Assembly: GCA_964372855.1 (NCBI GenBank)
Contig: CAYJRY010000001.1
Location: forward strand, 18,794 to 82,793
Length of the DNA stretch: 64,000 nucleotides
Direction: 5' to 3'
Origin: an uncultured Gammaproteobacteria bacterium
Lineage (GTDB): Bacteria > Patescibacteriota > Microgenomatia > Levybacterales > UBA12049
Shown: positions 32,131 to 59,079 of the stretch, in pieces
How positions within the stretch are numbered: the first letter of the stretch is position 1
Layout of the letters: each line of letters starts with the position of its first letter
Notes under the pieces: generated by a model
What the model was told of the DNA's origin: nothing
Databases searched by the model: none
What the model saw: the letters and a program-made list of their open reading frames with translations, nothing else
Program-made: the position numbers and the translations under genes

Positions 32131-32645
32131 AATACTCTTTTTCTAATATTAATAGCACTATCAATTGATTTAGCTAAATCAAGAAATATGGATGAGCTTT
32201 TCTCGGGTTCCCAATTAAATGTTTTTGGAATTTCTTCTAAACTTCTAAGAACTTCTCTGTGTTTTATCTCCGCTTCTTTAAGAAATAATTTATTATGGGA
32301 AATATCTTTTTTTTGATCGGCCTTTATATAATGTATAGTTTTAAGAAAATAAGAATCTGATTTTTTAAGAGCACTGATTCCAAGCAAATACTGTCTGTAT
32401 TCAAAGAGAGTTTTTGCCTCAACTAAATATTTATCTGAGTACTTCAGATTATATTTAAACTGCCCTAAATCACCAAAATACCAAAACTTGGATATTTTTT
32501 CCCAAATAAGTTTTATTGTATATAACTTACTTCCTGGCATACCTGATGGATACGGAAGCACGTAGTTTGATTCTGCAAGGCTGATGTTACTGAAAAATAT
32601 TAAGAGGAACAATGTGGGCATCAGTACCCAAAAACATCTTATCAT
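32127..32645 (-). CDS. Secreted/signal-peptide protein of unknown function (paralog S1)
   Basis: The likely true start is the internal Met (MIRCFWVLMPTLFLLIFFSNISLA), which makes an ATGA overlap with the upstream stop. The mature region YVLPYPSGMPGSKLY...FGDLGQFKYNL...YLVEAKTLFEYRQYLLG...HREVL is about 55% identical to 38610-39125. Confidence 0.45.
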   Translation of the reverse strand: MIRCFWVLMPTLFLLIFFSNISLAESNYVLPYPSGMPGSKLYTIKLIWEKISKFWYFGDLGQFKYNLKYSDKYLVEAKTLFEYRQYLLGISALKKSDSYFLKTIHYIKADQKKDISHNKLFLKEAEIKHREVLRSLEEIPKTFNWEPEKSSSIFLDLAKSIDSAINIRKRVL

Positions 32646-44205: not shown

Positions 44206-45714
44206 TTATCTATTATCTATCCTTCTCTGAACTATTACTCCTCCCTTTACGATTTCTTCTTTTTCTACAATTCCATCACCTTCCCTATCTTTTAGCCAAT
44301 CCCTTAATCTAAACGGTAAATCATAATCAGGCTCAATTATTAAATAAAATAATCCTGTGTTTTGTCTTGAAGGTATATACCCATATTTTTTCTCTCCATA
44401 CCACGGAAACAAGTATCTATAGGTGTAATCGTGTACTGCTGGAGTATAAACAATATATTTAAAATCCTTCCCTTTTGCATCGTTATAAACGTAATCGATT
44501 ACAGCAAGCTGATTACGATATACTGCTGCGTTTCCTTCCCACAATGGCTTCCTAATATTTTCTAAAACCTGTATGGGATCAAGGTTGATCCAAAATAAAA
44601 CAAAAAGTATAAAGAAAATAAACCAAAATTTTTTTAAGGCAATTCTCACTATATTAATAGCTATACTTATAAAAAAAATGTACAAAATTGGAATACCAAC
44701 AAGATAATGAGACCAAACAGCCTGATTGAAAAAAGTTAGACCAATTAAAAAAACTCCAATTGATATCAAAATAATTTTTACAAATTGCTTACTTGGATTC
44801 TCCATTTTCTTATAAAAAAATATTATAGCCAAAGAGGCAAATGTAATTAAAAGAAAACCAACTATAATATTTTGTCCTGCCAATGTAGCATTCCATGTGT
44901 TAAATAATGAAATCATCCTGCTAATAAGTGCATCGAAAAGAGAAAATTGCTTAGCAGGCAAAAAACCATTACTTAATGCATTAATAAATGTCTTAGTCAT
45001 TAAAAAATCGTTTCTAATTTCAAAAATAATACGTGGCGAAAAAATCAGCAAAAATCCTAAGATAAAAAAGAATATTCCTTTTATTGCCAGTCTTTTTCTA
45101 AAAAGAATAATTAAAGAGAGACAAATGCTTAAAAAGAATAGCGTCCCAAATACTATTGCCAGATCTATTATGATTCCCAAAAATAAACCAAGTAAAAATA
45201 GCTCTTTTTCTTTAGGCGCTCTAGATTGATCTTCAAGGGAAAATTTTCTAAGTATCAAAAAAACAAGCAGTACAAAAAATGCTGCTAAATTTGGACTCCA
45301 TATTTGTAAGGAAAATGAAACCATTAAGGAAGAGAAACTAATAAAAGCTGCAACAAGTATTCCTAAAAAAACTCCTCCTATCTTCTCACCAATAACATAA
45401 CCTAATATAATAGTAGCAATTCCGATGAAACCCATAAAGAAAGTAATTCCTTGTGGGTTGCCGGAAAAGATAAAAAATGGAATGCTTAATATAAAATACC
45501 ACCATGGACCATAGAAAATGCCCTCTATTCCTGTTGTTGGGCCGATAAGAGTAATATTATTATTAATTACTATATCCTCAACAGCAATTAAATCTCTGCC
45601 CACATCATAGGTAAAAGCAAATGAATTAGTAAAAATTCCGCTTAATCTAAGCCATGACCCGATTGCTATAATTATCATTAGCAAACCTAAAATAACAATT
45701 TTTTTCTTATGCAT
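44206..45714 (-). CDS. GT-C-like polytopic membrane protein, D-x-x-R-D family with a C-terminal WYGEKKYGY domain
   Basis: 502 aa. The N-terminal loop is FTYDVGRDLIAVEDIV...TLIGP...GIFYGPWWYF. The C-terminus is YLFPWYGEKKYGYIPSRQNTGLFYLIIEPD. Confidence 0.45.
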   Translation of the reverse strand: MHKKKIVILGLLMIIIAIGSWLRLSGIFTNSFAFTYDVGRDLIAVEDIVINNNITLIGPTTGIEGIFYGPWWYFILSIPFFIFSGNPQGITFFMGFIGIATIILGYVIGEKIGGVFLGILVAAFISFSSLMVSFSLQIWSPNLAAFFVLLVFLILRKFSLEDQSRAPKEKELFLLGLFLGIIIDLAIVFGTLFFLSICLSLIILFRKRLAIKGIFFFILGFLLIFSPRIIFEIRNDFLMTKTFINALSNGFLPAKQFSLFDALISRMISLFNTWNATLAGQNIIVGFLLITFASLAIIFFYKKMENPSKQFVKIILISIGVFLIGLTFFNQAVWSHYLVGIPILYIFFISIAINIVRIALKKFWFIFFILFVLFWINLDPIQVLENIRKPLWEGNAAVYRNQLAVIDYVYNDAKGKDFKYIVYTPAVHDYTYRYLFPWYGEKKYGYIPSRQNTGLFYLIIEPDYDLPFRLRDWLKDREGDGIVEKEEIVKGGVIVQRRIDNR

Positions 45715-45717
45715 AAT

Positions 45718-47229
45718 TTACTTAAATAAACGTTTCTGGATAATTAACCCGCTGGCAAGTTCTTTTGTTGCTATAATTTCTCCCTCTTTTATTACTGTCT
45801 CAAGCCATCCCTTATAGCTCCAAGGTTTTGAGCTATCCTTTTCGATAAGAAGATATATAAGTCCTTTTTTTTCTCTATGTGGAACATATCCATACTTTTT
45901 CTTTCCATACCAAGAAATAAGATAATCATAAGGATATGTATATATAGGAGGACTAAATATCAGTATCCCAAATTGTTTTCTGTGAGCGTTTTTATAAATA
46001 TAGTCTATTGCATCCAGCTTTCCTTTAATTTTATGTGTACCGCCATAATCGCCAATATCATAATAAAATGTTTTAACGTTAGAAAAAATACCAGAGAGGA
46101 GCATTATTGCCAAATATCCTACAATAAAAGCTTTTACAATTCTATATTGTATTCTTAAGAAAGATATAATAACAAAAACAACTAAAAATATATAAGCCAG
46201 ATTAAGATGAATAAGATAGTAATTATAAACAAAATTTCTCAAAAATCCTAAGACAATAAACGTAACTGGTATAAGGATTAAAAGATATAGGATAAATTGT
46301 CTTCTTTCTCTATCGTATTCTCTAATGAGCAAATAAAAAATAGCGGGAATAATAATAAATATTGCCAAAGGAATAATTTCTTGTCGGGGGAATGTAGACA
46401 AAAAATTCTGAAAAAATACCAAAAGATGATCGCGTAAAAGGTATATCCAAAATGTTTGTGTTGTTGCTGTTTCTGGATGATCAAATAAGTAAGTTAACAA
46501 TCCCTTTGCTGCTTGGAACCCATGTCGGATTTCAAACAGAAACATAGGAAAGAAAGACGTGACAAACCCTAAAAACAAAACAATATATTCTTTAACTTCT
46601 TTACGCCTAAGTACTAATACACAGTACACGATAAGACTTATAGAGAGAGGAATAGCTATGGCCAATTGAAAATTATATACAAAACCCGAGAAAAAGGAAG
46701 CCCAAAAAAGATATTTTGTTTTATGTTTTTTTGTAAAAAGAAATACGAAATAATATGCCAATAAGATAAATACTGGCGAAGGATTAGAATTCCATACAAA
46801 TCTTGAGTAGGTAATAAAAGGCGGAGAAATAGCAATCAAGGCAGCAACTATTAGTCCAACTTTTGCTCCAAATAGCCTTCTTCCAATAGCATAACCAACA
46901 AGAATTGTTGCGATTCCCAATAAAAACATTAATATTATTCCCCCATAAGGATCTCCTTTAAAAAATATAAAAGGTGCTGCTAGTAGATAATAATAAAAAG
47001 GTCCATGGAAAATTCCGCGAAATCCAGCAACACCCGCGCCTATTTCAGATCCAATAAGAGTCAGCTTGTGATCAACGACAATATTTTTTACCGCAAGATA
47101 ATCTCTACCTTGATCAAATCCAAAAAGAAAGTTTCTATTTAAAACCTCTACAGATCTTAGAATTACTCCACTCAATATTGCTGAAAAAAGTATTATATAA
47201 ACAATAATCCTCAAAAATCTTTTGGCCAT
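45718..47229 (-). CDS. GT-C-like polytopic membrane protein, D-x-x-R-D family with a C-terminal WYGKKKYGY domain
   Basis: 503 aa. It has FGFDQGRDYLAVKNIVVDHKLTLIGS...GIFHGPFYYY and YLISWYGKKKYGYVPHREKKGLIYLLIEKD. Confidence 0.45.
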   Translation of the reverse strand: MAKRFLRIIVYIILFSAILSGVILRSVEVLNRNFLFGFDQGRDYLAVKNIVVDHKLTLIGSEIGAGVAGFRGIFHGPFYYYLLAAPFIFFKGDPYGGIILMFLLGIATILVGYAIGRRLFGAKVGLIVAALIAISPPFITYSRFVWNSNPSPVFILLAYYFVFLFTKKHKTKYLFWASFFSGFVYNFQLAIAIPLSISLIVYCVLVLRRKEVKEYIVLFLGFVTSFFPMFLFEIRHGFQAAKGLLTYLFDHPETATTQTFWIYLLRDHLLVFFQNFLSTFPRQEIIPLAIFIIIPAIFYLLIREYDRERRQFILYLLILIPVTFIVLGFLRNFVYNYYLIHLNLAYIFLVVFVIISFLRIQYRIVKAFIVGYLAIMLLSGIFSNVKTFYYDIGDYGGTHKIKGKLDAIDYIYKNAHRKQFGILIFSPPIYTYPYDYLISWYGKKKYGYVPHREKKGLIYLLIEKDSSKPWSYKGWLETVIKEGEIIATKELASGLIIQKRLFK

Positions 47230-47232
47230 ACC

Positions 47233-48510
47233 TCAATATACTTCTTTTCCTTTTTTCCTCATATAATAATAGTATAAATACGATTCTGGAACTCCTTCAT
47301 GAAACCCAATATCCCTCCCTTCCTCAATTGCTTTTAAGACTTTTTGGCTTCGCTCATGAATTCCCCCTTCTTTATAAGTAAAATATTTGCTTATATTAAA
47401 TATTGCATAGTATATTAAAAAACAAGATAAAATAAATTTAGGAATCCAATTTCTAAATAAAAATATTCTAGATAACAAATAGGAGATAATAATAAGTGCG
47501 ATAAATCTGTTTGTGGAAAAATAGTAGTCGCTTATTTCTCCGCTATAAGTTGAGAGCACAAACCAAGGAACCACAAACCAAAGAATTATAAGATAACACA
47601 GAACTATTTTTTCTTTTGAAACTGATTTAAAAAACAACAGAAACATAAATAAAGGAACAAGAACAAACTTTAAAGGTTTAAGAAAGGAAAAAGTAAAAAA
47701 CGGCTCAAATTGAATAAGGGCATCATTTGTCAACTGCAGAACTCGTCTTACATGAAACCCATGATAGTAGCTAGTACCGTATTGTAAAAGATTTGATGTA
47801 TGTTGTTGATTTTCTAGAGTAGCTATAATAGTGGGAATAAGCCAAACTGTAAATACCGGTAAAGCAAAAAACATATATTTAAGCGTCTCCTTAGTCTTTG
47901 GAAAAAAAATAACTGACAGAAAAATCATAAAAGGAAAATAAATAGAAGTAAAATGTATGTGAAAGGAAAAACCCAACGCGAGACCCAAAAGAAGCATGAA
48001 TTTTGGATTTCCTGTTATTATTTTGTAGATACTATAAAATATAATAAGTGAAATGGCAGGGATAAAATTTACCGGCCATTGTACTCGGTCAAAAATAATA
48101 CCATAATATGCAACAGTATTTATAAAAATAGCTATAAAAGCGGTTTCCACTGAAAAAATTTTTTTAGTTATGTAAAAAAGGGTCAAAAATGTAAAAATGC
48201 TTGTAACTCCTGCAAAAACTCCGGATGCTATTGGATCAAGATTAAAGATCCAGTAGAAAAAAGCTATCATATAGTAATATATAGGACCAATAAAAATACC
48301 GCTGTTCTGCTTAGCAACCATTCCAACGAGAGGTAATTCGTGATTAACTATTATATTTTTGGAAGCCCACGCATTATCGACTTGATCCCATCCGAATGGG
48401 CTTCTTGTATCAATTTCATAGAACCTCAAAAATATCAATAAAATAAATATGATCAAAAATAATACCAAAGCTTTACTACTCCAAAAGCGCAAAATAAATT
48501 CTTTTATCAT
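47233..48510 (-). CDS. GT-C-like polytopic membrane protein, divergent D-x-x-(R/D)-(D/N) family member
   Basis: The likely start is MIKEFILRFW (1 nt after the upstream stop). The ORF-track start at 48609 would overlap the upstream gene by 98 nt. The loop is FGWDQVDNAWASKNIIVNHELPLVG...GIFIGPIYYY. Confidence 0.4.
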   Translation of the reverse strand: MIKEFILRFWSSKALVLFLIIFILLIFLRFYEIDTRSPFGWDQVDNAWASKNIIVNHELPLVGMVAKQNSGIFIGPIYYYMIAFFYWIFNLDPIASGVFAGVTSIFTFLTLFYITKKIFSVETAFIAIFINTVAYYGIIFDRVQWPVNFIPAISLIIFYSIYKIITGNPKFMLLLGLALGFSFHIHFTSIYFPFMIFLSVIFFPKTKETLKYMFFALPVFTVWLIPTIIATLENQQHTSNLLQYGTSYYHGFHVRRVLQLTNDALIQFEPFFTFSFLKPLKFVLVPLFMFLLFFKSVSKEKIVLCYLIILWFVVPWFVLSTYSGEISDYYFSTNRFIALIIISYLLSRIFLFRNWIPKFILSCFLIYYAIFNISKYFTYKEGGIHERSQKVLKAIEEGRDIGFHEGVPESYLYYYYMRKKGKEVY

Positions 48511-48511
48511 A

Positions 48512-50164
48512 TCAATCTTTATGAATAACTCTAATTGCAACTTCTCCATCTGGATAATCGATTCTATGAATAGTTTTATATATTTCGCTAAACTCTGAAT
48601 TGCTTCCAACTAATAGAATATTGTTTTCCTTCTCTTCATAGTAATTAAACGGTCTAAATTCAAAATTTAAAAATTTATTTTGAGCATCCTGAACGCCCGA
48701 CCTAGTTCCTCCTTCTTGTAAATATTTTTCAGGATTATATTTTGAATAAAAAAGAAAAAATATATAGGACTGATCCATAGGCATCCTATTCGAAACAATT
48801 ATCTTATTGTAGTTTTCTCTGACAGACATAAGGTAACTAACTAAATCTCTATATCCATATTGCCAGTATTTTGCGTGAAAATAATTTTGCTGAACAAAAT
48901 ACTGATTGATATAATAAACAAAATTAAAAATGAAAAATGAAAAATATAATCCAAATATTAGATATTTAATCTGTATTTTTGATATTTTATTTTTGATATT
49001 TGATATTGCACTTACGGTTGTAATAATCCCAATTGCTATAAATACTTGAAAAGTGGGCAAAAAGTTTAATGTGCGTACCGCATGAGGAACATCGCTTGTC
49101 ACAGAAGCTGGAATAGGGGCTATTAAAAACCAGCTAAATATAAACGCTTTTGTCTTATTTGGGAAATTACCAAATAATAGCATATATATCCCAATCATCA
49201 AAAATGGTAGCTCCCAAATATATAAAAGTCCCATGTTTGGTGCATGATGACGTGCTATATCGCCTTTTACGAACAACCAATTTAGATCAAAATGGGAAAG
49301 ATAACCAGCAATAATGTTTTTAAAATATGTAAATCGTCTATTGTCTAAAATAAGACCAATATAATCATGATTTTCCCTATTTCGCATAAGTCTTTGTACA
49401 TTTTCCTCAAGAATTGGTGTTCTATTCGCAAGTATGCTTACATCTTGAGCTCTAGACAGTGCTTCTCTATTGGTAAACGTGTAATAAATTATCGGTAATG
49501 AAACAAAAAGACCCAGTATTCCAGCTATTATTATGTATTTTTTTGAAATTAAGAAAAGGTCTTTTCTAAATATAAGAATTAAAGCAGTAAAAAGTAAGGG
49601 GGTGAAAACTTTCTCGCTTTGATATGTATATAAATTTACGCCACCCGCTAATGCAGATAATACTAAAAACCATGGTCTTTTTAATCCCAACAGAAAAAAT
49701 AATGCCGCAAAAACATTGAAAGCAAGCCCAACATTTGATTCAAAAGCAATTCTAGAAAATTGTATATGCCAAGGAGAAACAGCTAAAATAAATGCTGAAA
49801 GTAAGGCAATATTTTTTCTCCCAAAAAGTGTTCTAACCAAAAAGAAAACACCCAAAATAGTAAGTACTCCAAATACAGCAGATGGAATTCTAACTGCAAA
49901 TTCATTTAAACCAAAGATGACTATTGATGGTGCTGATAAGTATACATATAAAGCGGGTTTGTAATCATCAAACGAACGTAAAATAATAGGTAAAAACTCT
50001 CCATATTCATCTCTTCCTGTTTTTAAAATAGAATATGCATTGTATCCAAGAGCAACTTCATCCCAATCAGGAGAAATTGGTACATTTCCTAGTTGCCAAA
50101 ATCGCAAAAAAGATCCTATAAGAATTATAAAGAATAAAATAAAAAACTGAATATGTTTCTTCAT
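48512..50164 (-). CDS. ArnT/GT83-family (PMT_2-type) undecaprenyl-phosphate-sugar dependent glycosyltransferase
   Basis: 550 aa. It has FLRFWQLGNVPISPDWDEVALGYNAYSI...YKPALYVYL...IFGLNEFAVRIPSAVFGVLTILGVFFLVR. This matches the ArnT pattern (WDEARYAEIA...KPPL.YWL...FGxNEFAARLPSAL). Confidence 0.6.
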   Translation of the reverse strand: MKKHIQFFILFFIILIGSFLRFWQLGNVPISPDWDEVALGYNAYSILKTGRDEYGEFLPIILRSFDDYKPALYVYLSAPSIVIFGLNEFAVRIPSAVFGVLTILGVFFLVRTLFGRKNIALLSAFILAVSPWHIQFSRIAFESNVGLAFNVFAALFFLLGLKRPWFLVLSALAGGVNLYTYQSEKVFTPLLFTALILIFRKDLFLISKKYIIIAGILGLFVSLPIIYYTFTNREALSRAQDVSILANRTPILEENVQRLMRNRENHDYIGLILDNRRFTYFKNIIAGYLSHFDLNWLFVKGDIARHHAPNMGLLYIWELPFLMIGIYMLLFGNFPNKTKAFIFSWFLIAPIPASVTSDVPHAVRTLNFLPTFQVFIAIGIITTVSAISNIKNKISKIQIKYLIFGLYFSFFIFNFVYYINQYFVQQNYFHAKYWQYGYRDLVSYLMSVRENYNKIIVSNRMPMDQSYIFFLFYSKYNPEKYLQEGGTRSGVQDAQNKFLNFEFRPFNYYEEKENNILLVGSNSEFSEIYKTIHRIDYPDGEVAIRVIHKD

Positions 50165-50181
50165 ATGAAGTTTAAACTTGT

Positions 50182-51768
50182 TTATAACCTGTAAGCAACA
50201 AGAATTTCATTTTTATTTAATAGGTAAAATCTTTTTAAAATATCTCCTTTCGGATGAACTTTGCCAGGAGAATCTAAATACAATACCTTTCTTGATCTTG
50301 ATTTTATAGAACTTAGATTATTTGCGAAGCGATATTTTAGGAAACCCGATACCGTAACAAATCCGAATGAATCTCTCTCATAAATCTTACTTTCTCTTAA
50401 GATCTTCGGATCTGCTTTTGTATAAAATGCGTAGTATATATAAGGCCTACCCATATCCGAAGTTATATGAATTTGGTCATAATGATCTTCAACACTTTTA
50501 ACGTATTTTATCGATTCTTTGTAGCCAAATTGCCATTCTCCGGAATACTCATACGGATAATGAATGTAATAACCATGAAGATAATATAAAATATTAAATA
50601 TAAAAAATAAAAAACACAAAGAAAATATTAAATATTTAATTTGTATTTTTAATATTTGATGTTTTATGTTTGATATTGCATTTATAAAAACAATAACTCC
50701 ATATGCAGTGAATATCTGAAAGGTAGGTAAAGTTGCCTCTATTCTTAAAGCATGCGGAGTTTCTCTCGCGGTAGCAGCTGGAATTATACCTGCTAACAAC
50801 CAGACAGGAACTATCCACCAATTTCCCTCACGCTTCCTAAAAAGAAATAAGATACCAGCAACGAAAAAAGGCAATTCAATAATATACAACTGACCAACAT
50901 CTTGAGTAGAAAACTTAGGATTCCCATCCCCCCTTATAAATAGGAAACTTGGATTCAAATTGTCAAAATAATGCTTGATATACTCAACCGCATAAGCAAT
51001 ACGTCTGTTATGTATAATTGGCCATTTGGCATTTTTATCATTCTCTATCTCCTGATTAACTCTTTGTATAACGGCAACATTTGAAAAAATATTTACTTCT
51101 CGGAAACGTAACCGCGCTTGAGGACTTAATAAAAATCCAATTGTTGGAACTAACATCAACAATCCGATTAATGCCGAGATCAATGCTTGTTTTTTTCTCT
51201 CAAAAAGTAATTTTCGAAAGCTAAAAATTAAAACTAAAACTAAAATTGGTGAAACTATTCTTGCTGTATTAAAGGTATACATTGACAAGACAAAGCTTAT
51301 ACTTGATAAAATCAATAACCATCTTCTATTTGCTATCCCTTCCAAAAATAACCAAATGCCCAAAACTATAAAAAAAGTTGCTACGTTTGCCTCAAATGCG
51401 GCTCGAGACAGCATAATATGCCATGGAGAAATCGCAAGCAATAGAGATGCAAAAGACGCATATTTTTCTTTTAGATCAGAATTCCAAAAAATTCTTTTAG
51501 TTAAAAAATAGGTAATTAATACTGTTAAAACGCCAAAAAATGCTGAAGGAAATCTAACTGCAAATTCATTGAGCCCAAATAGCTTGATCGGTAATATATC
51601 CAAGTATGCATAGACAGGGGGTTTAAAATCCCCAAAAGACTCAAGGTAGTTAAGCGGTAAAAATCTTCCGAATTCATCCTTACCATCAATACCCAAAGAG
51701 TAAGAATTGTATCCCCATGCCACTTCATCCCATGTTAGAGAAGGTGGATTATTACCAAGTCTGTACAA
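50182..51768 (-). CDS. ArnT/GT83-family glycosyltransferase (paralog); the N-terminal TM helix is encoded upstream of the annotated ATG with no canonical start
   Basis: It has TWDEVAWGYNSYSL...FKPPVYAYL...LFGLNEFAVRFPSAFFGVLTVL. The reading frame stays open upstream (…[29 protein letters not shown]…) back to an ATT at 51832-51834, which is preceded by an AAGGGAG Shine-Dalgarno. Confidence 0.55.
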   Translation of the reverse strand: MYRLGNNPPSLTWDEVAWGYNSYSLGIDGKDEFGRFLPLNYLESFGDFKPPVYAYLDILPIKLFGLNEFAVRFPSAFFGVLTVLITYFLTKRIFWNSDLKEKYASFASLLLAISPWHIMLSRAAFEANVATFFIVLGIWLFLEGIANRRWLLILSSISFVLSMYTFNTARIVSPILVLVLIFSFRKLLFERKKQALISALIGLLMLVPTIGFLLSPQARLRFREVNIFSNVAVIQRVNQEIENDKNAKWPIIHNRRIAYAVEYIKHYFDNLNPSFLFIRGDGNPKFSTQDVGQLYIIELPFFVAGILFLFRKREGNWWIVPVWLLAGIIPAATARETPHALRIEATLPTFQIFTAYGVIVFINAISNIKHQILKIQIKYLIFSLCFLFFIFNILYYLHGYYIHYPYEYSGEWQFGYKESIKYVKSVEDHYDQIHITSDMGRPYIYYAFYTKADPKILRESKIYERDSFGFVTVSGFLKYRFANNLSSIKSRSRKVLYLDSPGKVHPKGDILKRFYLLNKNEILVAYRL

Positions 51769-51829
51769 TCGAAAAAATGTAGCTAAAAAAACTATTACTG
51801 CTAAAATTAAAATAATATGTTTGTTAAGT

Positions 51830-52507
51830 TTAATATTTTTCTCCCTTTCTTTTTAATAGGAATGAAACAGCCATTGTAAAATTAAATATTTTCTTATGAA
51901 CTATAGAAAAACCGTTTGTACGAATTACTTTTTCTAGATTCTCAGTATTAAATGTATGGATATGAGAATCTCTCCATACTCCGTGTCTCATATTAGTCCA
52001 CCAATGCCAAATTGTCTTAAATAGAAAATTTCCACTATCCATTTCTACAACTGCTATACCATTTGGGTTAAGCACTCTTCCTATTTCTTGTAGAACTTTT
52101 TCTGGAAATTCAACATGTTCTAAAACCTCTGTACAAATAACTAAATCAAATGACTTATCAGCAAAAGGTAGGTTGTGGCCATCGGAATGGATCAATTTTA
52201 GAGATTTATAACGCTTCTTGCCATAATCTATAGCTTTTTTGTAAATATCAACACCTATACATTTAGATTTTGGGTATTGCAACTTAACTTTGGAAAGAAA
52301 CCAACCGCTCGCACATCCAACGTCAAGAATATTTTTAGGATAAATATGAGTTCCCTCGATAAGGCTTAAAACAGTTTTCAATTTTTTAGTGTGCCAAATT
52401 CTCTGAAGTAGATTCTTTGATATCCCGTTTTGATAGTAGTCGGGTGGCACTTGGTGCCAAATTTCCTCTAACTCTTTCTTTGAATTGGTTCCTAACTTAC
52501 TATTCAT
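51830..52507 (-). CDS. Class I SAM-dependent methyltransferase (paralog group A, third copy)
   Basis: 225 aa. It has [11 protein letters not shown] and [49 protein letters not shown]. Confidence 0.65.
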
Positions 52508-52565
52508 ATTTTATTTTCCAAATACCCTGTTGTAAAAATTACGCTACCTATCGAAAATGATTGGC

Positions 52566-52844
52566 TTATTCTACTCTGTCTTTTCTGCCAAACTTTTTGC
52601 ACATCAACGGAACAGATAAGTATATTGGCAAGGGTAGAAACGGCCATCCTTGCATATTCATCCAGGTAAGAAATGGAAATGACTCACTAAAAACATTTTT
52701 ACCAGTTTGAGAAATAGAATAGGCATTATAGATATATCCCATTTCATCATGAGTCACACCGTAAGGAACATCACCAAGCTGCCAAAAGCGGAGAACTATT
52801 GCTAAAAGAAGAATCAGAAAAAGCACTAAATGTCTTTTAAGCAT
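52566..52844 (-). pseudogene. N-terminal fragment of an ArnT/GT83-family glycosyltransferase (truncated after about 90 aa)
   Basis: MLKRHLVLFLILLLAIVLRFWQLGDVPYGVTHDEMGYIYNAYSISQTGKNVFSESFPFL aligns with the N-termini of 48512-50164 and 50182-51768, then stops. No continuation is present. Confidence 0.5.
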
Positions 52845-52891
52845 AAGCAGAAAAAAGCTTCTAATATAATATCATAAGTAACTACATGAGG

Positions 52892-54385
52892 CTACCGAAA
52901 GTGAATCCCTAACTCTATAGATTTTTCATGCTCTATGGCTTGTTCCGCATCAGTTAAAATAAATTTTTCTATTATAAATCCATTTGGGAATTTTTTAGTT
53001 TCACTAGGTTCTTTTAGAATCTTTACCTGAACTTTACGCCACCAGTCATGAGTCATATAAGGATCATCTGCTGGAGGAGGAGCTGCAATTATGTATGTAG
53101 TAGGTTTTTTTGAATATTCAAAAGCTTTTGCTTTTGCTTTATTAAAATTATAGATCATTGCGTATCTTGGTTGATAAGCCAGAGCATCAGGCGCAAAAAC
53201 AAAATAACCAAACTCTCCTCCTTTCTGCCAGTCTACAACAGTATTTGCTACCTCGCTAAGAGCAAGCCACGAATTATAATGTTTACCAATACTTCTTTCA
53301 TCATAATGCATAGTAGAAATAAAATCCGAATAAAAAATTAAAAAGATAAATGGAATAAATAAGAATCTATACTTACTTTTAAGAAATGAGGTAAGCCATA
53401 AGGCAGTTAACGGTATAATCAAATAGACATAATGAAATAGTAAAACTCCTTTGTTAAAAAAGCTAAGGCACATATATCCAAAATAATAGAAGGGGAATAA
53501 AAAATATAATTTTCTTTGCCTGATATTTTTCAATTGCAGGATAGTGGCTATAATAACCACCGCAAAAACAATATAAACAAATAAATCATTTACTTTGTTA
53601 TTAAAAAGCTGTAAAGAAACCGTATTATTAATTCTGTTCTCCACCCACGATCTTATCGTTATAAAAAAATGCAACGATTCTCCAGTTGAAAGTATTGCTT
53701 TTGACATTCTCAAATCATTGCGAAGATCAAAGATAATTAAATTCGAAAGAAACAGGGGAACTAAAATAAAAGCAATTAAATGTCTCCAAAGATTATTTCT
53801 ATAGATTATCCAGATAATTAATAAAGAGGAGAGTATTAAAAATTGAAGTCCTATGCCGATCTCCAGTTGAATAATTAATGCCAGAATTATCAAATGTAAA
53901 GTTAGATATAGCGCTTTTTTGTTTTCTACATATTTATATATAGTAAATAAGAAAACAGGGACAAAAAAGAAAGTTGCTTCCGAATGAAACACTCCGTTCA
54001 GATAGGGAACCATTTTTGTAGAAACGAATAATACATAAACAAATGCAGGGAACATTCTAAGCATTTTCCAAACCATCCAAAAACTACTAATTAAAAAAAC
54101 TGCCGCAAGCATAATCCAAAACCACGCAATTATTACCGGATCCCCATGCCCAATAAGATATGCCGGGTAATTCATATATGTCCAGAGAGGGCCGTGGAAA
54201 AGCCCATTGGTGCTGGATCTGGGGCCAATAAGGACTATCTTCTTTTCATCCAATTCCGAAAGCAAAAGAAAATCTCTAGCAACGTCATTAAAAAAATTTA
54301 CCTCACCATGACGGACGGGATAAGAAGACATATACAAATTAAACAACGTTAGAAGAAACAATGGTAGATAAAATAACTTCCCCAT
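52892..54385 (-). CDS. GT-C-like polytopic membrane protein, D-x-x-R-D family member
   Basis: 497 aa. It has FFNDVARDFLLLSELDEKKIVLIGPRSSTNGLFHGPLWTY and a C-terminal soluble domain with a degenerate Y..KAK...Y...YIIAAPP motif. Confidence 0.4.
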   Translation of the reverse strand: MGKLFYLPLFLLTLFNLYMSSYPVRHGEVNFFNDVARDFLLLSELDEKKIVLIGPRSSTNGLFHGPLWTYMNYPAYLIGHGDPVIIAWFWIMLAAVFLISSFWMVWKMLRMFPAFVYVLFVSTKMVPYLNGVFHSEATFFFVPVFLFTIYKYVENKKALYLTLHLIILALIIQLEIGIGLQFLILSSLLIIWIIYRNNLWRHLIAFILVPLFLSNLIIFDLRNDLRMSKAILSTGESLHFFITIRSWVENRINNTVSLQLFNNKVNDLFVYIVFAVVIIATILQLKNIRQRKLYFLFPFYYFGYMCLSFFNKGVLLFHYVYLIIPLTALWLTSFLKSKYRFLFIPFIFLIFYSDFISTMHYDERSIGKHYNSWLALSEVANTVVDWQKGGEFGYFVFAPDALAYQPRYAMIYNFNKAKAKAFEYSKKPTTYIIAAPPPADDPYMTHDWWRKVQVKILKEPSETKKFPNGFIIEKFILTDAEQAIEHEKSIELGIHFR

Positions 54386-54406
54386 TTTGCAAAGAGAATA
54401 TTTATC

Positions 54407-56923
54407 ATGATACCATATTTCAAAATATATTCTGAGTTAGTTAGAATGAAAAAGTTGTTTAAATCTTTAGATTTTATAGTAATTATTTTCATCTCAATTG
54501 GACTCCTTTATATCTATAGCGATGTTTTACTAAACGGCAAGATTATTTTCCCGTCAAACTTTCTTGCACAATTTTATTCTCCCTGGAGAACAGAAAAATT
54601 CCCAAGCTGGGAAGCAGGAATTCCTCATAAGCCAATCGGGGACGACCAGATTAGACTATTTTATCCCGAACGCACATTTACCAACCTGTTGTTATCTAAA
54701 AATATTCTTCCGCTTTGGAATCCGCATACCTTTTCAGGAACACCATTTCTGGCCGACCTTCAATCTGCAATTTTTTATCCTCCAAATATTCTTTACTTCT
54801 TCTTGCCGCAATTGACAGCATGGCAAATTCTTCTACTCATCCAACCTATCATGGCAACAGCTTTTATGTATATATTTTTAAAAATTTTGGATCTTAAAAA
54901 ACCCGCTGCTTGGCTTGGAGCTATAGCTTTTGGATTCTGTGGTTTTATTTTGGCGTGGAGCCAGGAACATGTAACATCCGGACAAGCTATCTTGTGGCTA
55001 CCGCTAGTAATGTTCGGAATTGAGGGCTATCTTAGACATAGAAAATTAAAATACTACCTAATAGCTATTATTGCGCTGGCGTGTTCTATAGTTGGCGGTT
55101 TTATTCAACAGACTTTTTACGTTTATCTTTTTTCTTTTATATATGTCCTATATAGAATAAATACTTTGCGCCTTAATTTAAGCTACTTATTGAAAGTTAT
55201 GTTTATTTATATTTTCTCTGTATCTCTAACTGCAATACAATTATTTCCATCAATAGAAGCTTTTTTAGAATCCCCCAGAAGCACGTCATCAGCTTGGTAT
55301 TTATTCGAAGGATATCTTCTACCTGTTACTCATATACTCAATGCGTTAGTGCCGGATATTTTTGGAAATCCGGGGACATATAATTTTTTTGGGAGGGGTT
55401 TTTATAGAGAAACTATACTATATATTGGAGTTATTCCTCTATTCCTCGCTACTTATGCTATTTTTAAATCTAAAAAAAATACCATAATTATGTTTTTTAT
55501 TTTTGGCGCAATTTTATCCTTTTTCCTCACAATAGATTCACCTTTCACAAGATGGTTTTTCCGGCTCCCCATCCAATTTCTGAGACCGTTTTTGCCAAGC
55601 CGGATACTTACAATCACCGCTTTTTCTCTTAGCGTACTTTCCGCTTTTGGTTTATCCAAATTAATTAAAGAAAGGAAGAATGACAAGAAAATTCCGTTAT
55701 CTATTATTTTAATATTTTATTTTGCCTTTTTTCTAATAGGAATTTACGCAATTTTATTATTAAAGTTTGGCGATGAATCTTTTTTCAGAGGATTAAATGA
55801 TTACATAATTAGACATAGTTTTTCGCCTACTAGAGACAATGTATTTGTTCTTTTGAAAAATTTAATACTGCCGTTTGCATTTTTTTCCATCTTCGTTCTT
55901 CTTCTAATCTTCAAAAATAAGACTAAATTATTTTTATACGGAGTTGTTTTTCTAACACTATTGAGTCAATTTTATTTTTTGAAAAAATATTCTGTTATTG
56001 GCGAGGCTGAATTTCTTTATCCGAAAAATCCGGTTACTTCTTTTCTCCAATCGAGAAGTTCTTTTGATAGATTTCTGACCTTTCGTGAGTCATTTGAAGA
56101 AAACATATCAACATACTTTGGCATATATTCAGCAGAAGGAGCAAACCCTGTTTTTCCAAGAAGATATGGAGAACTACTTTTTGCTATAAAAAACAATGGG
56201 AAACTGATTAAAGATATCCCTCGTATCGAAGCAAGACTTTCGGAGCTAGGAGATAAAGAAAATCCATTCGAAGATAATAGAAGGCTTCGTTTATTTTCAC
56301 TTCTTGGGATAAAATATATACTCTATTTTGATGATCAAAATCCAAAAAATAGTGGTGCAAATAAATTCTCTGGAAATCTTTTTAAACCTATTTGGCGTCA
56401 TGGTAATTGGTATGGGCTTGAGTATCTTAACAGTTTCCCTAGAGCTTTTTTAGCAAGTAGTATCCATATTGAAAATAATCCTCAAAAAATTTTAGATTTA
56501 ATTTTTGATCCAAAAATAGACCTTTCAACAAGTGTCATTTTGGAAGATAAGCCTCTTGGCATAAAGAGTTCTGGCAAACTTATTAACTTAGAAAAACTTT
56601 CAAAAAATTCATTAGTAAATATTAAATCTTATCAACCTCAAGAAATAATTATCGAGACAAAAACCGATACTCCCCGGATGCTTTTTATTTCGGATAATTT
56701 CTATCCGGGATGGCAAGCTTTTGTTAATGGTAAAGAAACTAAAATTTATCGTACAAACTATACTTTTAGAAGCATTTACCTTTCAGCGGGAAACCACACA
56801 ATAATATTTAAATATAACCCGCAATCATTTAGAATTGGCTCTACAATCTCAATATTTACTGGTTTCATATTAATACTAATTATTTTAATGAACGTTCGCT
56901 CTTCAGCAGCAAGAAAGAGATAG
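54407..56923 (+). CDS. Very large YfhO-like polytopic membrane protein (GT-C candidate); the only plus-strand gene in the 3-prime 35 kb
   Basis: 838 aa (the start is probably the internal MKKLFKSL). It has IGDDQIRLFYPER...LPLWNPHTFSGTPFLADLQSAIFYPPNILYF and about 14 TM helices across the protein. A C-terminal extracytoplasmic domain ends in a TM anchor. Its size and topology match the YfhO family. Confidence 0.45.
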   Translation: MIPYFKIYSELVRMKKLFKSLDFIVIIFISIGLLYIYSDVLLNGKIIFPSNFLAQFYSPWRTEKFPSWEAGIPHKPIGDDQIRLFYPERTFTNLLLSKNILPLWNPHTFSGTPFLADLQSAIFYPPNILYFFLPQLTAWQILLLIQPIMATAFMYIFLKILDLKKPAAWLGAIAFGFCGFILAWSQEHVTSGQAILWLPLVMFGIEGYLRHRKLKYYLIAIIALACSIVGGFIQQTFYVYLFSFIYVLYRINTLRLNLSYLLKVMFIYIFSVSLTAIQLFPSIEAFLESPRSTSSAWYLFEGYLLPVTHILNALVPDIFGNPGTYNFFGRGFYRETILYIGVIPLFLATYAIFKSKKNTIIMFFIFGAILSFFLTIDSPFTRWFFRLPIQFLRPFLPSRILTITAFSLSVLSAFGLSKLIKERKNDKKIPLSIILIFYFAFFLIGIYAILLLKFGDESFFRGLNDYIIRHSFSPTRDNVFVLLKNLILPFAFFSIFVLLLIFKNKTKLFLYGVVFLTLLSQFYFLKKYSVIGEAEFLYPKNPVTSFLQSRSSFDRFLTFRESFEENISTYFGIYSAEGANPVFPRRYGELLFAIKNNGKLIKDIPRIEARLSELGDKENPFEDNRRLRLFSLLGIKYILYFDDQNPKNSGANKFSGNLFKPIWRHGNWYGLEYLNSFPRAFLASSIHIENNPQKILDLIFDPKIDLSTSVILEDKPLGIKSSGKLINLEKLSKNSLVNIKSYQPQEIIIETKTDTPRMLFISDNFYPGWQAFVNGKETKIYRTNYTFRSIYLSAGNHTIIFKYNPQSFRIGSTISIFTGFILILIILMNVRSSAARKR

Positions 56924-56937
56924 GGAGTTTGAGATAA

Positions 56938-59079
56938 TTAGTTACCATCGTATATAGTTATATCTTGACCATCTCTTTTGGATTTTTCAATTACAGTTCT
57001 TATTGTTCTTCCATTCTTGTCTTTAATTTTAATTATTCCCCCATCGTATGCTGATAATATTTTGTCGTATTGCTTTTCCTCCCCTTTAACGCCGTGATAA
57101 TTATAGCTACTGTAAATTCTAGTACAGCATTCTTCGTAGAATAGATTCTGAATGCCCAAAGGCTCGATAAGTGGTGAGTAATAAATCCTAGCTATATGAT
57201 GAATAATTTTTACACCTTTATATGAAAGTATTTTTTCTTTAAGATTATTTGTAAGATTTGTAAATAAGGTAAATAAAGGAGCATCGGAACCTGGAATCAT
57301 ATTTTCAAGGTATGCGTTTTGCAAATGAACATTTTTTACGTATCCTATTTTGCTTAGGAAATCTAGCATCTCATTCTCTTTTTTCAAATCAATTTCTTGA
57401 GGATTAACTGTTATCAAGTAGCCATTAATATCTTCTACTAAAACATTTCCCCCTGAGTCAAGAATTCTTCCTCTCTTTCCTTGAGATATAATAGTCTCCA
57501 CATTATGTTCGGGCAAAAATCCATTCAAAACCAAATCCCAATCCCAAATAATTTTCCATTGGCCGTCTTCTTTAATCAATTCGATACTTTTATTTTCAAA
57601 GAAAGCACCCAGACCTCTTGTTTTATATTTAACTAAAATTTCAACTAAACCTCTATTCGCAAATACTGAAATATCGCGCTTTAATTCTTTTATTTCAATC
57701 GCTGCTACTGTAGCTTTATCCAAAATTCCCTGCGTATGCAAACGAAATTCACCGCGGGACATTTTAGGAAAGGCTAATTTCGCAATATTTTCATGATATA
57801 TATCTTGGAAGTATTGATTAGATAGATTGTAATAAAAATTATTCAAAACCAACTCTGATTTGGGCTGTAGAAAAAACGTGGAATGAACAATACCATAGAA
57901 AATTATTACTACAAAAATCAAGATCTCTTTTCTATTATTAACATAATTAACAACTACCTTAACAAAAAGAAGATAAAGAAAAGGTAAAACAATCATTAAA
58001 TATCTGGGATATGCAGGAATAAAGGTATATACAATAAGAGTCAATAAAGTGAAAATAGAAATACCTTTCCAAAATAGATTAACTCCTTTCTTAAGAAGAA
58101 ATATTATAGAAGTAATTATTCCAATTATGCTAATTGTAGGCCATATAATCCACCATTCAGTAACAGAAGTAAGAGAACCGTCTGAAATATTGGGAAATTT
58201 TCCTAAGAATAATGTTTGCCAAATAGCTTCCTTATGAACAACAACTTGAGACCTTAGGTAAAAATCTACAATATATTTTTGCAAGCTTAAAAAATCTATC
58301 AAGGAATTACCATCAAAAAAGAATTTACCATACGGAATAAGTATTCCAATAAATATTCCGAAAGTAAAAATAATATATTCTTTAATCTTCTTTATATAAA
58401 TAAAAAATCCGCTCTCAAGAAAAAAAATTATAGGCAAAAGAATCGGTGGTTTAGTCTGTGTAAATAACCCTAATGACAAACCAATTAATAAAGAAAGGAT
58501 AAGCGTTTTATTGTTTTTTTTATTTACAAATATAATGAATAAAAATAAATTTACTAGAAGAAAAAACAATTGAGAGATGTCAACCCATGCTTTCCAAAAC
58601 TGATTTATGAAAAGAGGGTCAACAAAAAAAAGCGCTGTGGCAAATAAGGCAAATATACTGCTTCCTAGTAACTTCTTCGAAATAAGAAAAAAAAGAAATA
58701 GAGATCCTATTCCCAAAAAAAGGGCATAATAGGCGGGATTTCTAAAAATTAAAATTGATAAACCAATTAGATATTTTCCTACAGGAGGTGTTTCCGCATT
58801 GAATCCGTCAAGAGAAATTGTATTATTAATAAGACCATATCCAATATAGGAAAATAGCCCATCATCTCCTATAATTCGCTTCGACAAAGGAAGAACCCAT
58901 TGCGAATGCTCAAAACGATCTTTCCAGTAAGGAACATTATAGGCCTCTCTAAAGAAAGCCCTTTTAAAATAAATAATCTGAACAGTTTGTATTAAAATAA
59001 TAAGACAACAAAAAATAACAAGAAGGTACTTACTTCTAGACAATGTTTCAGTAATAAATTTATAAATTTTATTTTGCAT
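56938..59079 (-). CDS. PMT/GT39-like polytopic glycosyltransferase candidate, long form
   Basis: 713 aa. It has IIGDDGLFSYIGYGLINN...AETPPVGKYLIGLSILIF, homologous to 39147-40310 and PMT-like. It has a large C-terminal soluble domain. Confidence 0.5.
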   Translation of the reverse strand: MQNKIYKFITETLSRSKYLLVIFCCLIILIQTVQIIYFKRAFFREAYNVPYWKDRFEHSQWVLPLSKRIIGDDGLFSYIGYGLINNTISLDGFNAETPPVGKYLIGLSILIFRNPAYYALFLGIGSLFLFFLISKKLLGSSIFALFATALFFVDPLFINQFWKAWVDISQLFFLLVNLFLFIIFVNKKNNKTLILSLLIGLSLGLFTQTKPPILLPIIFFLESGFFIYIKKIKEYIIFTFGIFIGILIPYGKFFFDGNSLIDFLSLQKYIVDFYLRSQVVVHKEAIWQTLFLGKFPNISDGSLTSVTEWWIIWPTISIIGIITSIIFLLKKGVNLFWKGISIFTLLTLIVYTFIPAYPRYLMIVLPFLYLLFVKVVVNYVNNRKEILIFVVIIFYGIVHSTFFLQPKSELVLNNFYYNLSNQYFQDIYHENIAKLAFPKMSRGEFRLHTQGILDKATVAAIEIKELKRDISVFANRGLVEILVKYKTRGLGAFFENKSIELIKEDGQWKIIWDWDLVLNGFLPEHNVETIISQGKRGRILDSGGNVLVEDINGYLITVNPQEIDLKKENEMLDFLSKIGYVKNVHLQNAYLENMIPGSDAPLFTLFTNLTNNLKEKILSYKGVKIIHHIARIYYSPLIEPLGIQNLFYEECCTRIYSSYNYHGVKGEEKQYDKILSAYDGGIIKIKDKNGRTIRTVIEKSKRDGQDITIYDGN

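Follow-up and report, generated by a model that had tools for sequence, protein, structure and literature searches.

Ancient tandem GT-C glycosyltransferase paralogs in a Levybacteria genome, with a probable old cassette exchange and a decayed neighboring gene

The glycosyltransferase region described here, part of a 64-kb window (the whole stretch of DNA that was analyzed), is probably best explained by three elements taken together: a pair of ancient paralogs, an old exchange of a short cassette between paralogs, and a C-type pseudogene. The two intact genes (A and B, Table 1) are, judged by their sequences, ancient tandem paralogs of a Levybacteria (candidate phyla radiation, CPR) genome. 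The initial annotation had seen here a live record of paralog birth and death, a picture that turns out to be mostly ordinary: an ancient pair, a decayed neighbor gene, and an old exchange tract. The region would nonetheless offer a clean natural example of the exchange of a very short segment between diverged GT-C paralogs at one site, and it cautions against dating a duplication by local DNA identity in the AT-rich genomes of CPR bacteria.

Table 1. Coordinates of the features discussed, numbered along the window
Feature	Position	Strand	Description
Gene A	48512..50164	(-)	550-aa GT-C (PMT_2/PMT) membrane glycosyltransferase; WDE motif at residues 34-36
Cassette in A	48911..49012	(-)	Codons 385-418, SAISNIKNKISKIQIKYLIFGLYFSFFIFNFVYY; degenerate 7-nt arrays at 48955-49007 and 48920-48945
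Gene B	50182..51834	(-)	GT-C paralog; 550 aa from the likely ATT start at 51834-51832
Cassette in B	50581..50682	(-)	Codons 385-418 counted from ATT, NAISNIKHQILKIQIKYLIFSLCFLFFIFNILYY; degenerate 7-nt arrays at 50583-50635 and 50635-50674
Longest exact A/B match, 18 nt	49889..49906 (A), 51553-51570 (B)	(-)	AATGAATTTGCAGTTAGA, encodes NEFAVR
SAM-dependent methyltransferase, 225 aa	51830..52507	(-)	Between the remnant and B; Pfam Methyltransf_11, _23, _25
C-type pseudogene, second piece	52510..52605	(-)	Different frame; matches residues 465-496 in the full-length protein
C-type pseudogene, 5' piece	52608..52844	(-)	Codons 1-79 with TM1 and HDE motif

TWO PARALOGS OF THE GT-C SUPERFAMILY

All three open reading frames (ORFs) of the initial annotation are real and lie on the minus strand where it had placed them. 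Its description of A and B as ArnT-like transferases is borne out in the sense that both are GT-C paralogs by Pfam and fold, not ArnT proper. Both exceed the curated Pfam cut-offs (26.1 bits for PMT_2, PF13231; 22.7 bits for PMT, PF02366), with scores of 55.5 and 36.6 bits for A and 53.1 and 44.1 bits for B, and full-length relatives of the C and E types match PMT_2/PMT as well. The motif WDEV..GYN.YS...FGLNEFAVR is found in A and in B. Its acidic part lies in the first loop after TM1, where D35 and E36 are invariant among 23 A-family sequences, B has WDEV, and the C-type remnant has HDEM; this Asp-Glu motif after TM1 in all three is a trait that, at the sequence level, points to the GT-C superfamily. 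The AlphaFold2 model of A (pLDDT 78, pTM 0.80) has Foldseek matches in the PDB at E ≤ 0.05 to GT-C enzymes only, namely AglB, STT3, PglB, ArnT, DPY19, ALG9, PMT, Emb, and Aft, so the model supports a GT-C fold in which a multi-helix membrane domain is followed by a soluble domain. A phmmer search against the PDB returned no match for these GT-C proteins.

The N-terminus of B deserves a comment. As annotated, the gene starts with TTG at 51768 and encodes 528 aa, but its first membrane helix continues in frame upstream of this codon to an ATT at 51834, and the N-terminus is thus not cut. Every B ortholog has an ATG or GTG before TM1, whereas the B of the window has neither. AGGGAG stands 6 nt upstream of the ATT, which overlaps the stop codon of the methyltransferase by 1 nt, and this ATT is probably the true start. 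Biochemically, A and B would act as polyprenyl-phosphate-sugar-dependent GT-C transferases with an ArnT/OST/PMT-like layout: the Asp-Glu motif after TM1 and a small C-terminal domain after the last membrane helix.

AGE OF THE DUPLICATION AND GENOMIC CONTEXT

Gene-wide, A and B share 40% of their amino acids and 54.6% of their bases, and their synonymous sites are saturated outside the shared tract described below. The window copies are closer, at 50-77% identity, to their orthologs from other species (56-73% for A orthologs in Levybacteria metagenome-assembled genomes, MAGs). The tandem, with B immediately upstream of A, is kept in 76 of the 80 related Levybacteria loci, and the duplication must therefore be ancient, not recent as had been proposed.

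The surrounding genes include other GT-C-like genes and a methyltransferase, and the region appears to be part of a conserved Levybacteria envelope-glycosylation cluster with the order, along the minus strand, of a 497-aa membrane protein, a C-type GT-C gene, the methyltransferase, B, and A. In three related loci (L016, L057, and L060), methyltransferase orthologs with 56-71% identity adjoin a full-length C-type gene. The window sequence itself was reproduced without mismatch by a second assembler.

THE THIRD OPEN READING FRAME IS A C-TYPE REMNANT

The third ORF, of 92 codons (52566-52844), had been taken for a truncated third copy in a duplication series. It does align to GT-C N-termini and it is a dead N-terminal remnant, but its family is another one: it is 65-74% identical to the C-type genes of the three loci just named and only about 44% identical, over some 60 residues, to the N-terminus of A. 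In those loci, the C-type genes are full length (545-570 aa) and lie upstream of the same methyltransferase. The 5' piece matches residues 2-80 of the L016 protein (tblastn, 67% identity, E 3e-40) and then reads on out of frame to the stop at 52566. Moreover, the remnant is longer than the approximately 90 aa first assigned to it, since a second, frame-shifted piece aligns over 32 aa at 66% identity (tblastn, E 2e-11); codons ~81-464 and ~497-545 are deleted. Judging from these alignments, the 92-codon ORF is what is left of a C-type GT-C gene after two deletions, with truncation and frame disruption at a syntenic site. It belongs to a separate, older family linked to the methyltransferase and not to a duplication series of A and B.

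A SHARED TRACT OF ABOUT 100 NUCLEOTIDES

The near-identical DNA stretches first reported for A and B come down to one real patch of 81% identity. Blastn aligns 48911-49014 of A with 50581-50684 of B at 81.7% over 104 ungapped nt (E 4e-23); over codons 385-418, 83 of 102 nt (81.4%) are identical, whereas the remainder of the gene has 52.8% identity, and the longest exact run within the tract is a mere 12 nt. The longest exact match between the two genes, of 18 nt, falls elsewhere, within a strongly conserved protein motif. The tract is the best 34-codon window of the A/B alignment, the second best reaching 68%. It is low-complexity DNA, and AT-rich codon bias inflates identity. The value expected from both peptides and the codon usage of the window is 70.9 +/- 3.2%; the observed excess has P ~2e-4. 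Non-identical residues within the tract differ mostly by one base. The tract thus stands far above both its flanks and the codon-aware expectation, as gene conversion would have it.

In the protein, the A cassette takes in the last part of the penultimate helix, the short Lys-rich loop after it, which the inferred topology places in the cytoplasm, and the final membrane helix. The idea that such segments are recombination substrates that could shuffle transferase specificity is not supported: at most 12 identical bases occur in a row, and what is encoded, a loop and the last helix, is not on the catalytic or acceptor side of the protein. Two contigs in Logan from the same run end precisely at the B cassette.

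DISTRIBUTION OF THE CASSETTE AND ITS PROBABLE EXCHANGE

The cassette is common in the A family and sporadic in the B and E families, although these three are mutually only 30-40% identical. A 35-nt cassette pattern has 14 exact matches in JGI metagenomes (7 in A, 3 in B, and 4 in E genes), all at the homologous site. The B tract of the window agrees at 88 of 102 nt with an A gene from a second species (L013), even though the two proteins are 38% identical, and equally with a B gene from a third (L063); to its own A it is less close (82-83/102), and to the closest overall B ortholog (L005, 71% aa) it agrees at only 55 of 102 nt. That ortholog (L005 = L001) carries an unrelated 19-aa segment at the cassette site. 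When the tract is masked, the cassette-bearing B genes fall in at least 3-4 separate places on the B tree, a simple neighbor-joining tree of MAG sequences, some of which may be chimeric, and their sisters carry a B-native 'KKYKK..CLL.LLFLNF' segment. In the E family, the genes of L021 and L028 are 80-83% identical to the A cassette of the same genome over 95-105 nt, with flanks at ~60%, and the A and E copies of L028 have a synonymous variant, TTA TGT, in common. On these comparisons, the phylogeny of the tract appears incongruent with that of the flanking gene, and the cassette also reaches into a third paralog family.

The tract thus behaves like a conversion tract, as had been suggested, but not like one that is recent or ongoing in this genome, given that cross-genome identity (88/102) exceeds that between the window's own copies. 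Same-genome copies are not mutual closest relatives for the A and B cassettes of the window, and across 60 genomes the own-genome A/B excess is weak and barely exceeds that of control regions (mean rank 0.40, P 0.009, vs 0.41-0.49 for controls). Same-genome closeness of A, B, or E cassettes is suggestive only in L009, L022, and L028.

Most likely, the cassette was copied between neighboring paralogs by short-tract, non-reciprocal exchange, the mechanism and direction of which we infer; gene conversion or template switching at repeats could have been the route. After transfer, the copies would have diverged by point mutations, and the ~19% divergence suggests that the event in this genome is old. 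On either side of the tract, the paralogs agree at only about 55-60% of positions, too few for ordinary RecA-dependent conversion, and so the first transfer needs another route; template switching at AT-rich repeats is a putative one.

HEPTANUCLEOTIDE REPEATS

Tandem Repeats Finder detects a period of 7 in both cassettes of the window. The cassette consists of a succession of degenerate heptanucleotide tandem arrays, (ATATCAA)n first and then a T-rich array encoding the helix. Across three frames (ATATCAA)n reads ISNIKYQ, and length variants of the cassette differ by 7 aa. The arrays of the window are degenerate, with at most 2.9 perfect copies, whereas in relatives perfect arrays run to 5.0 copies at the cassette site and to 4-5.6 copies overall. 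Tandem repeats in these loci are almost exclusively of period 7 and in frame within coding loops. We found no published report of period-7 in-frame repeats like these.

Heptamer units such as GAAATTG (read LEIGNWK) recur across unrelated protein families. One might imagine a lineage-specific process in Levybacteria that makes heptanucleotide arrays, with hardly any other period, in frame where envelope-glycosylation genes encode loops, termini, or membrane helices, the arrays then seeding cassette exchange among GT-C paralogs, an idea that we put forward as speculative and rather unlikely. Such a process could be a special kind of slippage or templated insertion, or the arrays could be footprints of an element that duplicates 7 bp; the arrays could also form a contingency system by which surface glycosylation is diversified or switched. 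If general, the period-7 pattern would point to a mechanism of mutation or regulation that is unusual and at work in CPR bacteria, and it would explain the repetitive peptides ISNIKYQ, LEIGNWK, and KFKIQNS in the proteins of these loci.

ALTERNATIVE EXPLANATIONS

The reading of the initial annotation, i.e., a recent A/B duplication or present homogenization with the third copy as a young, dying paralog, draws on the local 81% tract and on the adjacency and common orientation of A and B. We regard it as extremely improbable in view of the 40% amino acid identity, the saturated synonymous sites outside the tract, the tandem kept in 76 of 80 loci, a tract whose copies in other genomes are at least as close as those in this one, and a remnant that comes from a different family. 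It is also conceivable that nothing was exchanged at all and that the cassette is ancestral to the GT-C families, kept by protein selection and AT codon bias and lost many times independently. Cassette identity is indeed alike for orthologs and paralogs (~80-86%), as expected at a plateau of constraint, codon bias alone predicts 71% identity, and the site is always the homologous one. What makes this explanation unlikely is that many A, B, and E genes do without the cassette, and that a distinct, conserved B-specific segment is so widespread at the cassette site that either it or the cassette must have replaced the other. The identity above codon-aware expectation, the perfect heptamer arrays as signs of recent DNA-level turnover at the site, and the TTA TGT variant common to the A and E copies of L028 also argue against it.

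Rickettsia palindromic elements are selfish repeats inserted in frame in coding genes, and a small mobile element of this kind, homing to the one site, would fit the patchy presence of the cassette, its partial self-complementarity (reverse-strand matches), the strong hairpin formed by the L009 copy (z -5.4), and the GC-rich palindromic inserts nested within it in several genomes. We give this possibility almost no credence: no copy in unrelated genes or sites was found in the 64-kb window, in 1.2 Mb of loci, or among the metagenome matches (14 of 14 on site), the window copies and 3 of 6 relatives' copies tested fold no better than shuffled sequences, and terminal repeats and target duplications are absent. 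Finally, the arrays might be contingency switches, where adding or losing a single 7-nt unit would put the gene out of frame and so silence the transferase. Heptanucleotide repeats mediate phase variation in Haemophilus influenzae, where they occur in hmw and TonB-receptor genes (PMC2651432). Both cassettes likewise contain a tandem repeat within an ORF of surface glycosylation whose unit of 7 is not divisible by 3, and relatives have perfect arrays of 4-5.6 copies. Still, of the H. influenzae arrays for which phase variation has been proposed, most contain 6-38 copies (PMC2651432), against at most 2.9 perfect copies in the degenerate arrays of the window and 5.6 in relatives, so that a long perfect, slippage-prone tract is missing. 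For each gene, 3-4 metagenome assemblies carry one and the same array, and none of the 80 loci, whose consensus assemblies hide minority alleles, has a split or frameshifted copy of A or B. We thus consider switching very doubtful and retain an old exchange between ancient paralogs as the preferred explanation.

COMPARISON WITH KNOWN SYSTEMS

ArnT (GT83) is the lipid A 4-amino-4-deoxy-L-arabinose transferase, which moves L-Ara4N from undecaprenyl phosphate to lipid A; CPR bacteria are not known to make lipid A. With ArnT (PDB 5F15/5EZM), A and B have in common the GT-C fold, an N-terminal multi-helix membrane domain, a small C-terminal periplasmic domain, and the acidic motif after TM1 (TM-scores of 0.53/0.53 for the A model), whereas sequence identity is only 12%. 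ArnT proper, as defined by the NCBIfam equivalog NF009784, was rejected (20 bits for B, with the cut-off at 567, and no match for A). The protein O-mannosyltransferases (PMT/PMT_2; CAZy GT39) resemble A and B in the DE-type motif within the first loop and in both Pfam models, above gathering thresholds, and the orthologs of A and B are named 'glycosyltransferase family 39 protein' at NCBI. Nevertheless, the Pfam match is confined to the N-terminal ~200 residues, and Foldseek places oligosaccharyltransferase catalytic subunits and ArnT above PMT.

The H. influenzae contingency loci also have 7-nt tandem units in or beside surface-structure genes, but here the arrays are short (at most 5.6 perfect copies), degenerate in the window, and kept in frame, and the consensus assemblies display no length polymorphism or off-phase allele. 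The cassette is like Rickettsia palindromic elements in being a short segment of repeat origin that lengthens a protein where this is tolerated and that some orthologs have and others lack; it differs in that it is not dispersed, every copy found lying at one homologous GT-C site. In bacteria, gene families evolve in concert when short tracts are converted between tandem or dispersed paralogs. The cassette resembles such conversion as a tract of ~100 nt far above its flanks, phylogenetically incongruent and common to neighboring paralogs. It departs from the classical form in that its flanks are too diverged (55-60%) for homologous pairing and that the tract is a low-complexity heptamer array, present in three families and stemming from an apparently old event.

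The A/B gene pair and its neighborhood

The locus is an ancient, conserved pair of GT-C paralogs with one decayed neighbor. The pair consists of the neighboring minus-strand genes A and B, both coding for membrane glycosyltransferases; the decayed neighbor is called C, and the methyltransferase gene of the same locus MT (see the table). Both A and B exceed the curated thresholds of the Pfam families PMT_2 and PMT, and their orthologs are labelled "glycosyltransferase family 39 protein", Candidatus Levybacteria, in the source databases.

The initial annotation had explained A and B by recent duplication or gene conversion. A recent duplication is contradicted by their divergence, as the two share only 40% of residues and 54.6% of bases. 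Their orthologs, hundreds for each gene, are much closer (56-73% identical for A and 61-77% for B). Of 80 loci fetched from species-representative genomes (numbered with an L), 76 have B immediately upstream of A, and A stands at a contig end in three more. The closer orthologs and the conserved gene order show that the pair is older than the radiation of these Levybacteria.

The A/B locus is part of a large envelope-glycosylation cluster. Ten proteins encoded at 42550-59079 were scanned with Pfam, and seven belong to GT-C-type membrane families or (two of them) have no Pfam match; the GT-C-type matches are PMT_2 in four proteins, PTPS_related, and YfhO. The other three are MT, the C remnant, and a 497-aa protein, again without a Pfam match. 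From about 5 kb onward, the minus strand carries almost all window ORFs of at least 150 aa. The ORF that follows A on its 3' side begins with TTG, occupies 47233-48609, and shares 98 nt (48512-48609) with the end of A; in the syntenic locus L001 its ortholog is called as 428 aa with a start just past A, so the true start probably lies further downstream.

As listed and publicly annotated, B has 528 aa and starts past TM1. An N-terminal truncation was rejected, since the frame upstream of the listed start is open and encodes 21 residues matching TM1 of all orthologs. These orthologs start with ATG or GTG; no ATG, GTG, or TTG precedes TM1 of B in the window, where an ATT (51834-51832) lies 6 nt past AGGGAG and overlaps the MT stop codon (tATTAAa). 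Given an open TM1 frame with only ATT available, either B is translated from this ATT or its start codon was recently lost.

Features of the locus and of related loci, with the sequence that carries them
Feature	Sequence	Positions	Strand	Remarks
497-aa membrane protein	window	52892-54385	minus	
C, 92-codon ORF	window	52566-52844	minus	
C-type piece	window	52844-52608		L016 residues 2-80; 67% identity, E 3e-40
C-type piece, other frame	window	52605-52510		L016 residues 465-496; 66% identity, E 2e-11
MT, SAM-dependent methyltransferase	window	51830-52507	minus	
ORF B as listed	window	50182-51768	minus	
ORF A	window	48512-50164	minus	
More GT-C-like genes	window	beyond A in minus-strand order	minus	
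Period-7 arrays, A cassette	window	48955-49007, 48920-48945		Tandem Repeats Finder (TRF)
Period-7 arrays, B cassette	window	50583-50635, 50635-50674		TRF
Further period-7 arrays	window	30347-30381, 59657-59683, 63129-63166		
Perfect cassette-site array	L008			(AAATTTC)x5.0
Perfect cassette-site array	L013			(ATATCAA)x4.4
Perfect cassette-site array	L011			(GTATCAG)x4.6
Perfect cassette-site array	L012, L018, L022			(CTATTTG)x4.4-4.9; encodes membrane helix
GAAATTG array	L016	16299-16330		
GAAATTG array	L025	8325-8349		
GAAATTG array	L028	6727-6760		
GAAATTG array	L048	8310-8342		
GAAATTG array	L067	13624-13661		
GC-rich nested inserts	L006	6839-6872, about 5080-5110		A and B, respectively
GC-rich nested insert	L028	4151-4201		E-type
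GC-rich nested insert	L016	7487-7510		B
GC-rich nested insert	L095	about 1070-1095		A
GC-rich nested inserts	P0005, P0011, P0019, P0022, P0040, P0124, P0128, P0139			proteins

A pseudogene of a different GT-C family

C had been described as a truncated third copy in an A/B duplication series. It does align to the N-termini of A and B (about 44%), but it belongs to another GT-C family, to which it is 65-74% identical. Full-length members of this C-type family (545-570 aa, PMT_2) stand directly upstream of the orthologous MT in L016, L057, and L060, and in the latter two B comes directly after MT, exactly as in the window. Two pieces of the L016 protein can be recognized here (see the table), and the rest has no counterpart in the window. 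As the pieces lie in different frames with the remainder missing, C is a pseudogene from which two deletions removed about 1.15 kb and about 150 nt, MT being retained; the death of a paralog, also part of the initial annotation, is thereby borne out. A peptide 'IWKI' just before the MT start, considered as the C-terminal remnant, matched only by chance; the second piece proper corresponds to residues 465-496. At L057 5480-5600, a GC-rich inverted repeat, TGTCATTGCGAG...CTCGCAATGACA (translation ...SLRGALRQAQGKLGDEAIF), closes the full-length C-type gene; it is a further GC-rich palindrome within an AT-rich genome.

A short cassette shared by A and B

A and B have in common a segment of about 100 nt, hereafter the cassette. 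Between A 48911-49014 and B 50581-50684, identity reaches 81.7% over 104 ungapped nt, and within codons 385-418 83 of 102 nt are identical, with exact runs of at most 12 nt; the longest exact match of the two genes (18 nt) lies inside the NEFAVR motif. The patch is the best window of the A/B alignment (the runner-up has 68%), and its identity exceeds what both peptides and the codon usage of the window predict (70.9 +/- 3.2%, P about 2e-4). Among its 25 identical residues, the codon is shared in 18 (13.5 expected), residues that differ do so mostly by one-base changes, and codon sharing beyond the patch is close to chance. Excess identity and codon sharing point to a DNA-level ancestry younger than the rest of the genes, but not young. 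The near-identical stretches of the initial annotation are thus real at the region it named, yet overstated. In an AlphaFold2 model of A (pLDDT 78, pTM 0.80), the patch is predicted to take in the final part of helix 369-392, the disordered residues 392-397 that form a loop, and the greater part of helix 399-426, the last one in the membrane, after which the C-terminal domain would follow.

An assembly artefact was rejected. From run ERR3478686, Logan provides two contigs (L097 and L004) built with a second assembler, and over 41899-55507 they agree with the window at every base; the A and B copies are not identical to each other. Given this match with an independent assembly, the features are not artefacts of one assembler. 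The two contigs end and start inside the cassette of B, overlapping by 27 nt (50589-50615), a break that fits a cassette which further sequences of the sample also contain.

Both window cassettes consist of period-7 arrays, and the peptide ISNIKYQ is simply (ATATCAA)x3 read across three frames. Relatives carry perfect heptamer arrays of different units at the same site, and ortholog length variants differ by 7 residues, that is, three heptamer units. In an alignment of 120 A and 120 B homologs, examined along with the 80 loci, the nearly invariant motif ISNIKYQI.KIQIKYLIF.LC.LFFIFNF is common in the A family and only sporadic in the B family, where many genes have an unrelated, B-specific KKYKK..CLL.LLFLNF. 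In L001/L005, the closest syntenic relative, A bears the cassette and B the B-native segment. The window B cassette shares 88 of 102 nt with the A gene of L013 (proteins 38% identical) and equally with the B gene of L063, 82-83 with its own A, and 55 with the B gene of L005, its closest ortholog overall. In a neighbor-joining tree with the cassette masked, B genes bearing it fall in at least 3-4 separate places. Searching with a profile of the cassette also located it in E-type genes, a third GT-C family, again at the homologous site (L021 and L028; 80-83% identity to A of the same genome over 95-105 nt, flanks about 60%), and a 35-nt cassette pattern gave 14 exact matches in JGI metagenomes (7 in A, 3 in B, and 4 in E), all at the homologous site.

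Two side observations concern this region. Between the related MAGs L007 (6300-9300) and L073, identity along B-A is mosaic (B start 95-100%, B cassette 48-53%, across A 65-85%, A cassette region 100%), which suggests recombination between populations or chimeric bins. Moreover, in several relatives the AT-rich heptamer array of the cassette is interrupted by inserts of 24-40 nt that are rich in GC and partly palindromic (CCCGCC..GGCGGG, CCTGCC..GGCAGG) and that add peptides such as PAFAKASAGRQ, PFDFAQGRH, and RSTSSGQ; the spot is the same in three paralog families and is filled by different sequences, and a GC-rich island scan to define them as a family was uninformative.

Explaining the cassette

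The best reading is that the heptamer repeats of A and B make up a short tract exchanged long ago: a segment would have passed among neighboring paralogs and then diverged. The flanks have drifted too far apart to allow classical conversion, so the initial transfer would need something like template switching at the repeats. A global own-genome similarity test for concerted evolution within genomes gave a weak signal, close to controls. That the segment is strongly constrained and was simply retained by vertical descent is less likely, and agrees poorly with its dispensability and with the B-specific alternative.

A dispersed mobile element was rejected because no cassette copy was found away from the homologous site, whether in the window, in 1.2 Mb of loci, or in metagenomes. 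Neither is the cassette a conserved RNA or DNA structure, since the folds of the window copies do not surpass those of shuffled sequences (z +0.87 and -1.02) and Rfam has no match in window 48000-53000. Among six cassette copies folded from relatives, only that in A of L009 forms a strong hairpin, that in B of L009 being weaker (z -2.7) and L011 borderline. The L009 A hairpin (4719-4841; -32.8 kcal/mol, z -5.4) comprises arrays of (GACTTAA)n and (GTCTTAC)n, which are near reverse complements; the B cassette of L009 has the same two units.

Heptamer repeats beyond the cassette

A census of perfect arrays of at least 3.5 copies in loci L005-L084 and the window (1.22 Mb) returned 32 of period 7, one of period 8, and none of periods 5, 6, or 9-15, against a Markov expectation of about 0. 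TRF yields 69 arrays with 3 or more copies and matches of 85% or higher, 62 of them of period 7. All arrays listed with their context (at least 27) are placed in frame within ORFs of 215 aa or longer, in a second loop, flanked by YFL.K.lF and LLSA.LLAISPWH, of A and B, at N-termini, and in loops of other, non-GT-C proteins of these loci. Five genomes have arrays of the GAAATTG unit, which is translated as LEIGNWK. In three genomes the arrays lie in loop 2 of A and B, and two further, unclassified proteins (282 and 351 aa) also carry them; the recurrence of the unit in both GT-C and other proteins indicates that the choice of heptamer unit is not random. In the window, a perfect (ATTTTGA)x4.7 array at 32644-32676 (AAATTCA on the coding strand) encodes KNSKFKIQNSK, the C-terminal tail of a 357-aa product that by its sequence looks like a sugar epimerase; the array directly borders the probable ATG of the following gene.

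Comparison with known systems

The distribution of the cassette and the excess of period-7 repeats are the only unusual aspects of the locus. We found no reports on heptanucleotide or simple-sequence repeats in CPR/Patescibacteria, or on GT39 in CPR. In Haemophilus influenzae, heptanucleotide repeats are known phase-variation devices, and the arrays proposed as phase-variable mostly have 6-38 copies (PMC2651432). Neither length polymorphism nor off-phase alleles were seen in our 80 loci and the metagenome assemblies.

In short, the observation behind the initial annotation is partly confirmed and its interpretation partly supported. The initial annotation had described A and B as ArnT-type transferases. 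A phmmer search of the PDB gave no match and no solved relative. The PDB structures matched by the A model are GT-C enzymes only (9-14% identity), namely oligosaccharyltransferase catalytic subunits, ArnT, DPY19, ALG9, and PMT, and ArnT superposes on the model with a TM-score of 0.53 in both directions. The score against the NCBIfam ArnT equivalog, on the other hand, is far too low (20 bits versus a cut-off of 567). These proteins are thus not ArnT, yet "ArnT-like" describes their predicted fold and general chemistry correctly.
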